A DNA stretch of 64,000 nucleotides from an uncultured delta proteobacterium (GCA_963816145.1 CAWFJP010000003.1:448001-512000); one strand, 5' to 3'; counted from the first letter of the stretch, positions 4,606 through 44,597 are shown. Made by a program: numbers and translations. Notes: generated from the sequence alone by a model not told the origin.

Positions 4606-5214
4606 ATGGCGATAAAACTTTATCACGACGTACCGTCCACCAATTGCGACCGCGTTAAAATCGTCCTGGCGGAAAAAGGACTCTCCTGGGAGGGGATTTG
4701 GGTCAAGCTTGGGAAAATGGAACAAAAGAGTCCGGAGCATTTGAAACGTAATCCCTACGGTAAAATTCCGGTGATCGACGATGACGGCAAACTGCTTTTC
4801 GAGTCTTGCATCATCAACGAATATCTTGACGAAAAATATCCCAACCCGCCGCTGCAACCGAAAGACCCGTATCTACGCGCCCGCGGCCGCATCCTGGTCG
4901 ACTATTTTTTGAACTATCTGCACGGTCCTTACTGGGCGCTGCGCGGCGAAATGATCAAGAAGAATGAAGCTGAACGCGACCAGAAGCTCATCACTGAAAC
5001 CAGAAAAGAAGTTACCGCGCGGCTTCAGTATCTCGAAGAAGCTCTTGGCGACAAACCTTTCTTCCTTGGCGAATACGGCCTCACCGATATCGCCATGCTG
5101 CCGCGCTTTCCGCGACTGGCGCAGTATGGCGTTTTGCCGAGCCCGGCGCTGCCCAAGTTAACCGCCTGGTTCGAGCGCATGAAACAGCGCCAGGCCGTGC
5201 AGGCAATCCTGTAG
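4606..5214 (+). CDS. Glutathione S-transferase family protein
   Basis: NPYGKIPVI.DDG..LFES.II.EYLDE; C-terminal helical domain with L.DIA motif. Confidence 0.9.
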   Translation: MAIKLYHDVPSTNCDRVKIVLAEKGLSWEGIWVKLGKMEQKSPEHLKRNPYGKIPVIDDDGKLLFESCIINEYLDEKYPNPPLQPKDPYLRARGRILVDYFLNYLHGPYWALRGEMIKKNEAERDQKLITETRKEVTARLQYLEEALGDKPFFLGEYGLTDIAMLPRFPRLAQYGVLPSPALPKLTAWFERMKQRQAVQAIL

Positions 5215-14783: not shown

Positions 14784-14866
14784 GTCATGCCGGTGGAAAC
14801 CGGCATCCAGGTTGTGGTTCGCGGGGATGGGTTCAAAGACTGGATTCCGGCCCGCGCCCGAATGAC
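14784..14866. repeat. REP-like doublet
   Basis: gtcatgccggtggaaaccggcatcca ... tggattccggcccgcgcccgaatgac. Confidence 0.8.
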
Positions 14867-32080: not shown

Positions 32081-33121
32081 TCAATCCTCCACCACCTGCA
32101 CCGCTGCCTCGACGCCGTTGCGCTTGAGGATCTCGACATACTCGCGCTGGATCGCCGGATCTTCGTCGGCCATTGGAATCATCGTCCAGGCCGGATTGCG
32201 AAATCGGTCATGGCTGTATTTGGGACTATCGCCGCGCATGGCGAAGTGGCGCATGTTGCCTTTGCCGGTATTGAAATGGCCATGCCACATGAGATCGTTG
32301 GGCGAGTAAACCGTGCCGACTTTGAATTCATGGCGCTGGCGCTCCTCGCCATCCCGCCACAACACCACATAACCCTCGCCCTGGGTGATGATGATCACCG
32401 CCCCTGGCCCGTGCCGATGAAAGGTGCTGCGGCAACCGGGCGGAAACTCGGACACATGACAGCCGTAAGTCGTATCCGCCAGCGTGTAGCGCATATGCTT
32501 GACGTTCTTGCCCTTCATCGGAAAGTCGTCGAGAGGGAAATGATTGACGTCCGGCACCAAGTTGGTCTCCCAGTAGCGGTCGGTGACATGCTTGTTGTAA
32601 CGCAAAAACTCGTCGCCCTCATGAAAGCGGTCGCGGAAATTGAACGGATTACGGAAAATAAAATCCTCGTTGTGAAAGATATTGATCATCGCCGGGCAAG
32701 TCGTGCCGACAAACAAACGGATTGGCTCGCTGCCCGAACCATTGAAGTGGATATAGGTGGAATTTAGCGGGATCGCAAAGATCGCCCCCGGCCCCCATTC
32801 GAACGTGACTTTGGACTTCTCGTCCTGCCACACCGAGGTCGCGCCGCGCCCTTTGGCGACATAAACGATCTCCTCGAATAAATGGCGCTGCGGCAAAGTC
32901 TGGCTGCTCGGCGGGATCTCGCAGACGTAAGCGTCGGTGCGCTGCTGATTGGAAAGGTTGAGATAGCAGCCCAACACCCCCATGCGCTCCCATTTGCCCA
33001 GCTCGAGGGTGGTCACGTCATTGACAACATTGCCCCTGACAATAGGAATACCTTCCTTTTGCAGCAATAGATCGTACGGCGTCGGGCCAAAATCCAAATG
33101 TTCGCGAAACGGTAATAGCAT
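32081..33121 (-). CDS. Bicupin (cupin-domain) protein
   Basis: QRHLFEEIVYVAKGRG, FHRHGPGA, WHGHFN. Confidence 0.8.
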   Translation of the reverse strand: MLLPFREHLDFGPTPYDLLLQKEGIPIVRGNVVNDVTTLELGKWERMGVLGCYLNLSNQQRTDAYVCEIPPSSQTLPQRHLFEEIVYVAKGRGATSVWQDEKSKVTFEWGPGAIFAIPLNSTYIHFNGSGSEPIRLFVGTTCPAMINIFHNEDFIFRNPFNFRDRFHEGDEFLRYNKHVTDRYWETNLVPDVNHFPLDDFPMKGKNVKHMRYTLADTTYGCHVSEFPPGCRSTFHRHGPGAVIIITQGEGYVVLWRDGEERQRHEFKVGTVYSPNDLMWHGHFNTGKGNMRHFAMRGDSPKYSHDRFRNPAWTMIPMADEDPAIQREYVEILKRNGVEAAVQVVED

Positions 33122-33198: not shown

Positions 33199-33261
33199 AA
33201 TTCTCCATTATCAATTCTCCATTTTCCATTCCTCCCTCCTGTTGCCTAATGCCTATTGCCT
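33199..33261. repeat. Heptamer tandem repeats (ATTCTCC-like x4, TGCCTAW x3)
   Basis: aattctccattatcaattctccattttccattc; tgcctaatgcctattgcct. Confidence 0.65.
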
Positions 33262-33277
33262 CTCCTATATTCCGCCA

Positions 33278-33676
33278 ATGAAAGATAGCCTCTGTCCCGG
33301 TCTCACCCGAACCGCGTCCTATCAAACCACCATCGATATGCGCGCGCGCCAGCTCAAAGCCGATGTTTTCTCGACGCCGTCGATGATTAGCTTGATGGAA
33401 CGAACCTGCACGGAGCTTACAGAACCCTATCTCGATGACAATGAACAGACTGACGGCATTCACATCGACGTGCGCCACTTGGCATCGACGCGCATCGGCC
33501 AAGGCGTCACCATGAACGTCGAGATCATCGAGGTCAAAGGCCGCAAGATCCGCTATGCCATCGACGCCTACAACGACGCCGGCGTGAAGATCGGCGCGGG
33601 CACCCAATGGCGCGCGGTTGTCGACACCCAGCGCTTCGCCGGTGGGATCGACCGGGAGGCTGACTCTGCGGGCTAA
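33278..33676 (+). CDS. Hotdog-fold thioesterase (fluoroacetyl-CoA thioesterase FlK-like)
   Basis: VFSTPSMISLME, G.HIDVRHLA.T.IG, IG.G...R.VV. Confidence 0.8.
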   Translation: MKDSLCPGLTRTASYQTTIDMRARQLKADVFSTPSMISLMERTCTELTEPYLDDNEQTDGIHIDVRHLASTRIGQGVTMNVEIIEVKGRKIRYAIDAYNDAGVKIGAGTQWRAVVDTQRFAGGIDREADSAG

Positions 33677-33817
33677 AAATACTCGGCACCTATCCCCCAC
33701 GGAGCCATGTCGGCGAGTGCCATGGTTCGAGCGGCGCCTTGGCGACAATGAATTCTTGTTGCACCAGTGCGCCCGAACGGCGTAGATTCCACCATCAGAC
33801 GAAACTAGGAGGTCTTC

Positions 33818-34378
33818 ATGAAGCTATTTACCTACCGGCCTTGACCCTACGCCCACCGGACAAGGATTGTCCTGGCGGAAAAGCATCTCCCCTATGAGAC
33901 CATCGAGTGCGATCTCAAGAACAAATCCAAGGAATTGCTCGAACGCAATCCCTACGGCAAAGTGCCGGTGCTGGAAGACGACGGCGCGGTAGTCTACGAG
34001 TCGGCGATCATCGACGAGTATCTCGAAGAAAAATATCCGGCGGTTCGCTTGATGCCGAGTGACCTGGCCGAGCGCGCCCGCGCGCGCATCTGGATCGACT
34101 ACTGCAATACCCGCCTGCAGCGCGCCGGCGGCTTCGTCGCCCATGATTACAAAGTCGAGCAGTCCAAAGCGGAGATCGTCGAGTATTTGAGATTTCTCGA
34201 CGCCCACATGCGCGGCCGCGACTATATCGCCGGCGAGTATTCGCTCGCCGATATCACTTTTATCCCGTTTTTCACCCGGCTTGACCGTTACCAAGCAACC
34301 GTTGGCGATGACCTGCCGAATGTCAAAGCATGGGTGAAACGGTTGTTGGATCGACCGGCGGTGCGAGAAACGCTATAG
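33818..34378 (+). CDS. Glutathione S-transferase family protein, probable selenoprotein (UPYA; Sec at TGA 33842-33844)
   Basis: AGGAGG RBS, then ATG AAG CTA TTT ACC TAC CGG CCT TGA CCC TAC GCC CAC CGG, in frame with ORF 33935-34378 (NPYGKVPVL, YES.II.EYLEE, YSLADI). Confidence 0.82.
33850..33877 (+). promoter_or_regulatory. Candidate bacterial SECIS hairpin
   Basis: CGCC-cacc-GGACAA-gga-TTGTCC-t-GGCG; the G-initiated apical loop starts after a 19-nt spacer from the UGA. Confidence 0.65.
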
Positions 34379-34424
34379 TCAATTGGAGTGATGTGGCTAC
34401 GCTAGACCGCTGGCCGCCAATTCC

Positions 34425-34505
34425 GTCATGCCGGTGAAAACCGGCATCCAGGGGGGAGTGGCGGGGCGGAATCGAAGCCTGGATTCCGGCCTCCGCCGGA
34501 ATGAC
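34425..34505. repeat. REP-like doublet
   Basis: gtcatgccggtgaaaaccggcatcca ... tggattccggcctccgccggaatgac. Confidence 0.8.
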
Positions 34506-34547
34506 AGACACGGGAATAACAAACATGAACGGAGACTTATTTCGATC

Positions 34548-35536
34548 ATGGTTAGTTTCTTGGGATTACTAATTTTCATTTCATTGTTGGAGCGCCAGCA
34601 AACCTAGTCCATGCCGCCACCAACCTGACGAAAGTCCTCCTCACTACCGGCTCGGTGAGCGAGCGCGAAGCGGCCGTTTACGTCGCCCAAGAACAGGGCT
34701 ACTTCCGCAAATACGGTGTCGAAGTCCACTTCGTCCAGACGCGCAACGGTCCGGTGGGCATGGCGGCGCTCAGTTCCGGCGAGTCTCAGTTTCACTGGGG
34801 CTCGGTAACCGGCGCCAACCTCGGCGCCATCGCCGAAGGTGCCGATATCGTATTCGTCGCCGGCTTCATCAATCGCCTAACCGGCATGTTCATGGCCAAC
34901 CCCAAGATCAAGACCCCTGCGGAGTTGCGCGGCAAGAGCGTCGGCGTCAACAGTCTCAGCGGCGGCGGCTGGATCTTTTCCATGCTGACATTGGACCATT
35001 GGGGCCTATCGCCGGAGCGCGACAAGATCCAGTTCCGTTCCCTCGGCGATCAAAGCGTCATGGTCCAGGGGCTCATGGCGGGCACTGTCGACGCCGCCCT
35101 GGTCGGCTACGCCCATGGGAGAAATTTGCAGAACAAAGGCTACACAGTGCTCGCCGATGTGGAAAAGCTGCCGATTCCTTACCAAGGCTCAGGATTGATG
35201 TCGCGACGCAACTTCATGCGCGCTCAACCGGCGGTGGCGGAAAGTGTCTTTCGCGGCTTGATCGACGCCGTCAATTTTATCCGTAATCCGGCCAATAAGG
35301 CCGAAGTGATGCGCGCCGTCGCCAAGGGCATGCGCTTGGCAAAAGTGGAAGACGCCGAGGAAGGCTACAAAAGCCTGCCGACGATATACGACCAGAAAAT
35401 TTACCCCAGCGTCGACGGCATCCGCAATGTCATCCGTCTGCTTGGCACGACCAATGAAAAGATTCGCAAATTGAAGGCAGAAGATCTGATCGAAGATGCC
35501 GTGCTCAAGAAGCTCGAAAAGGAAGGCCGGTTCTAA
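34548..35536 (+). CDS. ABC substrate-binding protein, SsuA/NMT1-like; probable frameshift in the signal-peptide region (~34575-34585)
   Basis: GYFRKYGVEV, ELRGKSVGV; the main frame extends upstream (IVGAPANLVHAA) without a start, while MVSFLGLLIFI begins at 34548 in another frame. Confidence 0.72.
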
Positions 35537-35659: not shown

Positions 35660-36857
35660 TCAATTCACGAATTCGATCACGTCCAGGCCACGTTCCTTAT
35701 CCGTGACCCACAGTAAACCGCGGTGGTCCTTGACGACGTCGTTGGTCAGCGGCGCCGCCACCCCATCGCCTGGTTTCGGAATGAAGTATCCGCGCTCCTT
35801 GGGGTTCTCCGGGTCGTTGATGTCGATAATACGCAAACCGCCGGCGAACCAGGTGACGTAAAGCAGATTGTCCGCGTCCACCCGCTCACGTAATTGATGG
35901 GTGCCAAAGCGTACCTTATCAGCCGGATACGGCGTCGCTGACTCGGCCAAATAACGGGTGTGAAGCAGCTTCGGTTTCGTCGGATCACTGACATCCCAAG
36001 TCCGTAGCGGCCCGTGCGGCTTGCCGGTATCGGCGCCACGGTGGGTGCGTTCTTCCTCCGTCGAGACAGCGATGCGCTTACCGCCGATGGCATGGGGAAC
36101 TTTGAGAAAGGTGTGGGTCGGCTCCGGGCAAGGCGGGTCATATTGCACTGCATCGTAATGCGACAACGTGCGCGGCGCCATGATGTCACTGACATCAATG
36201 ATCGCGACGCCCGACATCCAGCAGCCAGCATACATTTCGTTGCCGCAGCGCATGGCATGGTGCAATCTGTGCTCGGCATGCTTCGGGTGCGGTGCGTCGC
36301 CGCCGGCGACATGCTGCCCCTGCATCCACCAACGGGAGACTTCCACCGGTTTCACCGGGTTGCGGATGTCATAGATGACTAGAATATTGCCGACGAATCC
36401 TTCCATCTCCGTGGAGATATAAGCGTAGTTCTCGTCGCAATCGAAGCGATGCACACCCTTGCCATGGGTTTTCACGAAGGTGATGAGCTTAGGATTTGTC
36501 CTGTCTTTGATATCGTAGATCCGAAAGCCGCCGTCGGGATAATCCCCGTGTTGACCGGGACCGCGCTCGAACTCGGAGTTGACCAGCATCAGAGTCGCCG
36601 ACCACACGCACCTTGTGCGAGTGCGACCAGGGGTGGTTTGGCATCAGCGTGCTGACGACCTTCGGCTTGCGTGGATCGGCAATGTCGAGGATCGTCGTTC
36701 CCTGGACCCGGTGTTGATGGCCGACATAGGCATAATTCTTATCAAGGACGATCTGCCCGCCGCCCTCAAGCTCCATCCGGCTAAGATGGCGAATATTCGC
36801 CGAACCGCGCGGCGCGTTGCCGCTGTCGCTTTCCGCTGTGGCCAAAACTTCATTCAT
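35660..36857 (-). CDS. LVIVD-repeat beta-propeller protein, split by a 1-nt insertion near 36593
   Basis: Repeated YAY..G..I.DI.DP..P units; HSHKVRVVGD continues as LMLVNSE in the next frame. Confidence 0.75.
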
Positions 36858-44516: not shown

Positions 44517-44597
44517 GTCATGCCGGCGAAAGCCGGCATCCAGGTTCGCATTGCGCATCGGTTCCAAAAGATGGATTCCGGCATACGCCGGAATGAC
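44517..44597. repeat. REP-like doublet
   Basis: gtcatgccggcgaaagccggcatcca ... tggattccggcatacgccggaatgac. Confidence 0.8.

Follow-up and report, generated by a model that had tools for sequence, protein, structure and literature searches.

Does the in-frame TGA near the 5' end of a glutathione S-transferase (GST) gene terminate translation, or is it recoded as selenocysteine (Sec)? This question is raised by a locus in a stretch of 64,000 nucleotides from an uncultured delta proteobacterium (GCA_963816145.1 CAWFJP010000003.1:448001-512000), referred to here as the window. An initial annotation, made from the sequence alone, had proposed that the locus encodes a hidden selenoprotein with UGA at the catalytic position and a bacterial selenocysteine insertion sequence (SECIS) downstream of it. 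The analysis establishes a whole gene, a conserved UGA, a conserved and covarying hairpin, and the machinery for Sec insertion. The catalytic residue is almost certainly Sec, and the locus very probably holds an intact gene for a 186-residue, cytosolic-type GST in which UGA is recoded and whose product is a glutathione-dependent enzyme. Coordinates of the gene, its signals and its neighbours are given in the table.

When the TGA is read as U, the frame runs uninterrupted from M1 to the stop codon with this single TGA inside it, and the product begins MKLFTYRP-U-PYAHRTRIVLAEK, or MKLFTYRPUPYAHRTRIVLAEK in plain letters. The AGGAGG box, the ATG at 33818, the TGA at 33842-44, the letters of the hairpin and the 19-nt spacing between UGA and loop had all been placed exactly to the base by the initial annotation. 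Its further proposal of a 186-aa product continuous with the open reading frame (ORF) that starts at 33935 is borne out by the read-through translation to the TAG and by a match to Pfam GST_N_3 (3.1e-22, residues 3-75) that spans the TGA. The product also matches GST_N_2 (PF13409; 3.6e-21) and, over residues 113-180, GST_C (1.6e-12), and by these domains it is a complete GST. Standard pipelines were expected to truncate such a gene, and they do. Translation table 11 yields only the 147-aa ORF, and 119 of the 120 best proteins from a collection of 5.8 billion are forms of 129-177 aa that cover 69-94% of the query. A database protein of 211 aa (P0018) has the UGA codon rendered as W. Among the best matches listed, the public protein sets searched contain the gene only as N-terminally cut forms. 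The TGA itself recurs in assemblies from other sequencing runs, as contigs spanning the codon from two other DNA runs, one of which is possibly the source sample, are identical there. Short pieces of further contigs, one of them from an RNA library, match only 33839/41-33882, which is the UGA-SECIS core, and differ in their flanks.

Conservation of the UGA was followed in 41 genomes belonging to this genus and order, the window genome (G000) included. Exactly one TGA is present in 57 of the 58 matches at 50% identity or more, the exception being a match that begins at residue 15 and leaves the codon outside, and TGA is found in none of the matches at 45% identity or less. The search for orthologues with TGA at this codon, which had been suggested as a check, therefore came out in favour of the proposal. 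At least one such TGA gene is carried by 38 of the 41 genomes, and the other three are 65%, 92% and 93% complete. For codon-level comparison 71 genes were extracted, comprising 30 loci from the 41-genome search, 40 from a scan with a single genome for each species, and the second copy in G000, with many genomes overlapping between the sources. Codon 9 is TGA in 69 of these genes (55 distinct sequences); the remaining two have TCA (Ser) and are 38-40% identical to the window gene. The TGA genes belong to two paralogous clades, each of which has a member in G000. One row, L028, comes from G005, and its removal leaves the results unchanged. The ATG, a Shine-Dalgarno box and the eight codons preceding the TGA are retained in relatives down to 44-53% identity.

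Cys had been expected at the corresponding position of homologues, and it is the residue most often found there. Among the best 150 cluster representatives (clusters at 50% identity), 124 span the site, and the residue aligned with the UGA is Cys in 91, Ser in 32 and Asn in one. The nearest full-length homologues, which are 45-46% identical, read CPFAHRTR and CPYALRTR. The site is a classic Sec/Cys pair.

The hairpin lies within the coding sequence (CDS), immediately 3' of the UGA. In the window, GGACAA (33858-63) and TTGTCC (33867-72) enclose the loop GGA (33864-66), forming a 6-bp stem (GGACAA/UUGUCC) that is followed by a C33857.U33873 mismatch and a C33856-G33874 pair; CGCC (33850-53) and GGCG (33874-77) flank it. 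The consensus of the 55 distinct sequences after the UGA is CCCUACGCCCA, then CAGGACAA-GG(A/C)-UUGUCCUG, with stem onset 11 nt past the UGA (13 nt in the window) and onset of the GG-led, 3-nt loop 19 nt past it. The 8-bp stem of the consensus is paired in 98% of 440 cells, a value that falls to 25-50% when the 3' arm is slid by one to three columns. Two-sided changes occur in three of the eight pairs (six cells: C-G to G-C, G-C to A-U, and A-U to G-C or U-A), and none of 500 shuffles matched the observed pairing and compensatory values. The hairpin proposed by the initial annotation is thus conserved and covarying, although the conserved stem is the 8-bp CAGGACAA/UUGUCCUG and not the lower stem CGCC/GGCG. 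The latter can form in the window and was rejected as a conserved element: 29 of the 55 rows leave pair 12-39 open, and pairs 13-38 and 14-37, which fall on the invariant GC of two Ala codons, carry no information.

Codon usage over the hairpin is similarly constrained. In 51 full genes, the lowest synonymous entropy among 92 six-codon windows is at codons 13-19 (mean 0.22 bit). The five hairpin codons within 14-19 that were scored have a mean of 0.24 bit versus 1.16 bit over 92 other conserved codons, codon 17 having been excluded by the 80% amino-acid cut. The hairpin codons AGG, ACA, AGG, AUU, GUC and CUG are near-fixed, while no such constraint is seen in the Ala, Glu and Lys codons on either side. 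A separate dip, the second lowest in synonymous variation, is found at 34130-34160 (codons 105-114), where values are 0.53-0.61 bit against the mean of 1.16.

The element resembles the SECIS of the Escherichia coli fdhF type in being a hairpin inside the CDS, in its onset about 11 nt past the UGA, and in its small, G-led apical loop. It differs in having a short perfect stem (in the family consensus), a 3-nt GG(A/C) loop, and no bulged U such as that of the fdhF SECIS. When 44 nt are folded, the hairpin is within the minimum free energy (MFE) structure, and the hairpin folds of relatives have z values of -1.7 to -3.0. A scan of the whole window against Rfam at the gathering threshold gave no matches. 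The bacterial SECIS model, as set out in a figure legend of a 2026 review (PMC13188914, Fig. 2 legend), has a loop of 3-9 nt with G in its first two positions, an upper stem of 4-16 bp, a UGA-to-loop distance of 16-37 nt, and an MFE of -7.5 kcal/mol or lower. With its GGA loop, stem of 6 bp (8 in most relatives), spacing of 19 nt and -12.1 kcal/mol, the window element lies within these published limits.

A selenoprotein gene implied that machinery for Sec would be found elsewhere in the genome, and this is the case. The genome contains a tRNA-Sec (74 bits; anticodon TCA by ARAGORN), selA (3.4e-160), selB (wing domain at 1.1e-19 in a 653-aa frame) and selD (1.8e-113), all clustered within about 14 kb on contig 30 (562714-576851). 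The assembly is 7.8 Mb in 31 contigs, 99.5% complete with 6.7% contamination, which leaves some chance that contig 30 is mis-binned. A strong selA match is present in 38 of the 41 relatives, and the other three are 60%, 65% and 93% complete. ARAGORN found no tRNA in the window. The selD gene (contig 30:565877-566803; L011) has one in-frame TGA inside it, and because of this it is predicted to encode a Sec-containing selenophosphate synthetase.

Cytosolic GSTs are marked by a thioredoxin-like N-terminal domain, a cis-proline, a Glu-Ser pair, and a helical C-terminal domain with an S-x-A-D capping motif, and each of these marks is found in the read-through product. Residues invariant in 28 aligned sequences are C/U9, P10, V49, P50, E61, S62 and D145, of which we take V49-P50 to be the cis-proline, E61-S62 the gamma-glutamyl-binding pair, and D145 the helix-capping Asp. 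Because the cis-proline, the Glu-Ser pair and the capping Asp are invariant, the glutathione-binding site (G-site) looks intact. An AlphaFold model built with the 28-row alignment has a mean predicted local distance difference test (pLDDT) score of 97.1; in it, residues 2-5 form strand 1 and residues 10-21 form helix 1. U9 directly precedes this helix and is its predicted N-terminal cap, which is the catalytic position in thioredoxin-fold enzymes. Against solved GSTs of the tau, SspA, omega, zeta and nu types, the template modelling (TM) scores from Foldseek are 0.84-0.93, and the best sequence matches in PDB are a tau GST (2.2e-28), SspA homologues and human GSTO1 (2.6e-25). The tau GSTs and SspA-like homologues (4chs, 2vo4, 6ep7, 6v91 and 4qq7; best sequence match 2.2e-28, TM 0.88-0.92) share the domain order and the G-site with the window protein. 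Tau GSTs differ in having Ser at the aligned position (P-S-P-F versus P-U-P-Y) and in conjugating glutathione (GSH), and SspA differs in not being an enzyme.

The initial annotation had compared the protein with GSTs of the omega, xi and lambda types. The part of the comparison that holds is the motif, as U-P-Y-A stands at the start of helix 1 and corresponds to the (C/U)-P-(F/Y)-A pattern of omega GSTs such as human GSTO1 (PDB 1eem), in which the catalytic chalcogen is also at the N-terminus of helix 1. Residues 2-183 align with residues 25-213 of the GSTO1 chain, and an ungapped reading sets U9 opposite residue 32, presumably the catalytic Cys32 in C-P-F-A. Class membership does not hold. 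The omega class has a proline-rich extension at the N-terminus, some 19 residues long, and an additional C-terminal helix; the window protein lacks both the extension and the longer C-terminus, having only eight residues before U9 and 186 aa in total compared with 241 aa for GSTO1, and it has Sec in place of Cys. Since these extensions are missing and the closest sequences are Ser-type tau GSTs, the protein is not assigned to the omega class. No NCBIfam model scored above its cut-off, the best being SspA (3.9e-24, 85.2 bits versus 314). From these comparisons the protein is assigned as a GST-superfamily selenoprotein only. A GST without Sec had also been noted in the window at 4606, and a Ser-type GST with the motif PSTNC is indeed present there (4606-5214). 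Glutathione is plausibly available in the host, as the genome has matches to GSH-S_ATP (2.4e-68) and GCS2 (2.2e-69).

Several observations weigh against a recoded GSH-dependent enzyme and have to be set beside the evidence above. Five of the eight stem pairs are without variation between standard pairs (four are invariant and one has only unpaired departures), and because of this much of the 98% pairing reflects sequence conservation of the coding stretch HRTRIVL, whose amino acids are conserved in Cys homologues too. Since the rows are related to one another, the shuffle test makes the case look stronger than it is. Codon 14 is CGG rather than AGG in the window, giving the C.U mismatch at the base of the stem; this A-to-C change, which weakens the base, is also present in the two close relatives L016 and L020. 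For the 44-nt fold of -12.1 kcal/mol, z is -0.97 and 32 of 200 shuffles are equally good, and thermodynamics alone gives no support since a 65-nt fold around the UGA has a z of -0.01 and an MFE structure other than the hairpin. The case for the hairpin rests on conservation and covariation. Apart from the UGA-SECIS stretch of a relative, contigs from RNA libraries reach only the 3' part of the gene (34146-34452) and could reflect DNA carry-over; they tell neither level nor strand and were left out of the evidence for translation. PF04262 (gshA type 1) was not found in the genome, and GSH synthesis depends on the GCS2-family match, a family that also holds ligases not concerned with GSH. The gene neighbourhood yields no functional partner beyond the genus, and no partner is kept family-wide.

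Under one rival reading the TGA is a true stop, and the GST at this locus has decayed or lost its N-terminal part, its product being made from a downstream start such as the TTG at 33935. The sole table-11 call is that ORF, the shortened forms that dominate the databases agree with it, and ordinary stops in the window are most often TGA. Translation from 33935, however, would leave out the first two strands of the thioredoxin-like domain together with helix 1 and the catalytic residue. The retention in diverged relatives of the ATG, the Shine-Dalgarno box and the codons preceding the TGA also speaks against a dead 5' end, and a nonsense mutation is not expected to have become established at the same codon in 69 of 71 genes and in two paralogous clades. 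Termination at the TGA is thus extremely unlikely. Alternatively, the UGA could be read through as a residue other than Sec, either by a near-cognate Trp or Cys tRNA or under a reassigned code, with the hairpin serving to pause the ribosome or stimulate read-through. One database caller did render the codon as W in P0018. The code is nevertheless taken to be standard because TGA ends 33 of the 60 stop-to-stop frames of at least 250 codons in the window, and Trp would be chemically senseless at a catalytic position where homologues have Cys or Ser. The letters of the hairpin loop and its spacing fit the SelB-type model, and this genome has the complete Sec machinery, with strong selA matches in 38 of 41 relatives. 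Read-through with another residue is accordingly very unlikely.

A different reservation accepts the protein as a Sec-GST and concerns what it does. The protein might act as a regulator or binding protein in the manner of SspA, a GST-fold transcription factor, rather than as an enzyme, and SspA homologues are among its top matches in both sequence and fold (NCBIfam SspA at 3.9e-24; PDB 6v91 and 4qq7). The score of 85 bits is far under the NCBIfam cut-off of 314, however, the G-site residues are invariant, and the cost of Sec at the catalytic position implies redox chemistry. To our knowledge, all characterised Sec residues of bacterial proteins are catalytic or redox-active. A non-enzymatic role of this kind seems most improbable, and a GSH-dependent selenoenzyme remains the preferred reading.

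By the established bacterial pathway, SelB with GTP and Sec-tRNA(Sec) would bind the hairpin loop while the ribosome holds the UGA in the A site, and Sec would be inserted there in place of termination. By analogy with Cys-type GSTs and engineered seleno-GSTs, GSH would then bind the G-site (cis-Pro V49-P50, E61-S62 and the SLAD helix-capping motif), and the selenolate would attack a disulfide, an S-glutathionyl adduct or a hydroperoxide. The resulting enzyme selenenylsulfide (E-Se-SG) or selenenic acid would be resolved by further GSH. The enzyme would therefore be a GSH-dependent thiol transferase, reductase or peroxidase and not a conjugating GST, with thiol transferase or peroxidase chemistry proceeding via the selenenylsulfide. 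The chemistry expected of omega GSTs is alike, as these form a mixed disulfide with GSH in thiol transferase, dehydroascorbate reductase and deglutathionylation reactions. Engineered seleno-GSTs, in which the catalytic Ser is replaced by Sec chemically or through auxotrophic expression, are reported to have glutathione peroxidase (GPx) activity of the order of that of natural GPx (reviewed in PMC9944854). The window protein resembles these, being a GSH-binding GST scaffold with a predicted Sec as its catalytic residue. The engineered proteins are laboratory constructs from the theta, zeta and other classes and were made without a SECIS, whereas the gene described here is a natural one with its own recoding signal. 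The family offers a clean natural test of what selenium contributes to a GST scaffold, a question for which engineered seleno-GSTs have hitherto been the only approach.

A narrower proposal, speculative and rather doubtful, is that the natural seleno-GST is a GSH-dependent hydroperoxide reductase that works through an Se-OH/Se-SG cycle and not a thiol transferase, with its SECIS having come about by codon choice. If this were true, the protein would be an analogue of glutathione peroxidase, structurally unrelated to it and built on a GST scaffold, in a clade that is widespread in soil and sediment and carries two paralogues in each genome. The SECIS would then have arisen purely through codon choice over a pre-existing helix-1 peptide, HRTR(I/L)VL.

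GST-like selenoproteins have been predicted in prokaryotes before and are little characterised, as the initial annotation had stated. In their 2005 study of the Sargasso Sea, Zhang, Fomenko and Gladyshev made the first predictions of 15 selenoprotein families, GST among them with four sequences in COG0625 (PMC1088965). Twelve GST-like sequences are given for the Global Ocean Sampling (GOS) data of 2008 (PMC2398784), and the 2026 review lists a GST-like family (PF13409, one Sec) and describes them as largely uncharacterised (PMC13188914). The window protein has the domain composition of that family, with N- and C-terminal GST domains and one Sec. It also shares with it, as far as these accounts describe the family, the GST fold, a single UGA-encoded Sec, an adjacent 3' bacterial SECIS and widespread Cys homologues. 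In these accounts the family is known by computational prediction only. The catalogued members come from ocean samples, whereas the source assemblies of this branch are from soil, wetland and sediment, judging from run labels and record titles, and this branch has two paralogues per genome. Since GST-like selenoproteins have been predicted since 2005, the gene is a sound annotation fix that does not overturn current understanding. What it corrects is the listing of this gene and many relatives, in the protein collections searched, as cut GSTs without their catalytic residue; two selenoproteins per genome have thus been overlooked in a common group of bacteria, as yet uncultured, from soil, wetland and sediment. 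The near-invariant short SECIS (CAGGACAA-GG[A/C]-UUGUCCUG, 11 nt past the UGA) may serve as a probe for more members.

The second paralogue in G000 (contig 18:167158-167715; L088:4159-4716) is 53% identical to the window gene, begins MKLYTSYT-U-PYAHRTRIVL and has the same SECIS. Because the SECIS is common to both paralogous clades, the duplication postdates the acquisition of Sec. In a quick maximum-likelihood tree computed without bootstrap, 23 Sec rows of both paralogous clades fall in one clade (SH-aLRT 99), beside which a SAR324 Sec form (44% identical) has no resolved place, and L079 is placed elsewhere with weak support. The tree decides neither for nor against a single origin of Sec. 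The SAR324 form and L079 are distant Sec-GSTs (L078:1553-2128, from the SAR324 record, and L079:3001-3591) with 44-46% identity and the UGA at the same position. Their hairpins have other stem letters and the same shape (AGAACGA-GGC-UCGUUCU and GAGGACGA-GGA-UCGUCCUC), and the two genes may link the soil clade to the marine GST selenoproteins. A phylum-wide search of 301 genomes (G000 and a draw of 300) at E <=1e-45 found the gene in two, the window's own and one family member; this result covers those 301 genomes and does not prove absence.

Table. Features of the Sec-GST locus and its neighbours in the window
Feature	Position	Strand	Remarks
Shine-Dalgarno AGGAGG	33807-33812	+	5 nt 5' of the ATG; relatives have a GGAGG-like, purine-rich box at equal spacing
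Sec-GST, full CDS (predicted)	33818-34378	+	ATG 33818-33820 to TAG 34376-78; 186 aa; U is residue 9
UGA as predicted Sec codon	33842-33844	+	Residue 9, motif U-P-Y-A
Bacterial SECIS hairpin (predicted)	33856-33874	+	Family conservation and covariation
Shortened TTG ORF, 147 aa	33935-34378	+	Sole table-11 call; replaces the whole gene
Two-cupin protein	32084-33121	-	Divergent neighbour; context only
183-aa ORF, no family	33200-33748	-	Divergent neighbour; context only
NMT1/THI5-like solute-binding protein	34655-35533	+	Downstream; context only; beside the gene in close relatives

The two-cupin gene, the 183-aa ORF and the NMT1-like gene stand beside the Sec-GST in several loci of closer relatives (GST identity of at least 67%), and the two-cupin gene and the 183-aa ORF are both missing from every locus with GST identity of 52-66%. 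The neighbourhood was set aside as a clue to function, its companions being limited to the loci of closer relatives. Genes for a family-5 solute-binding protein and two ABC permeases, an importer of the peptide or glutathione type, directly precede the second paralogue, which is followed by a homologue of ornithine cyclodeaminase/mu-crystallin.

The two-cupin protein is much better conserved than the GST, with 98% versus 90% identity in L046, L047, L049 and L050, and 84-88% where the GST has 67-71%; the identity of the 183-aa ORF between them is far lower, at 36-68%. A 315-aa LVIVD-repeat protein (35663-36607, minus strand), whose gene lies at a distance of 1.3 kb from that of the Sec-GST, matches SBP56, the 56-kDa selenium-binding protein family, below the threshold (3e-7, 30 bits, cut-off 34). 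Its gene is also beside the Sec-GST in the genomes of at least two close relatives (four loci).

Just 3' of the Sec-GST gene is a palindromic intergenic repeat, GTCATGCCGG-TGAAAA-CCGGCATCCAGG (34419-34510, core 34425-34452). Further copies at 14784-14811 and 44517-44544 bring the number in the window to three, all on one strand and with 0-2 mismatches, where none would be expected by chance. The repeat is a high-copy element common to many contigs, because the summed depth of soil metagenome contigs is 225-874 over 34416-34517 versus 3-28 over the remaining stretch.

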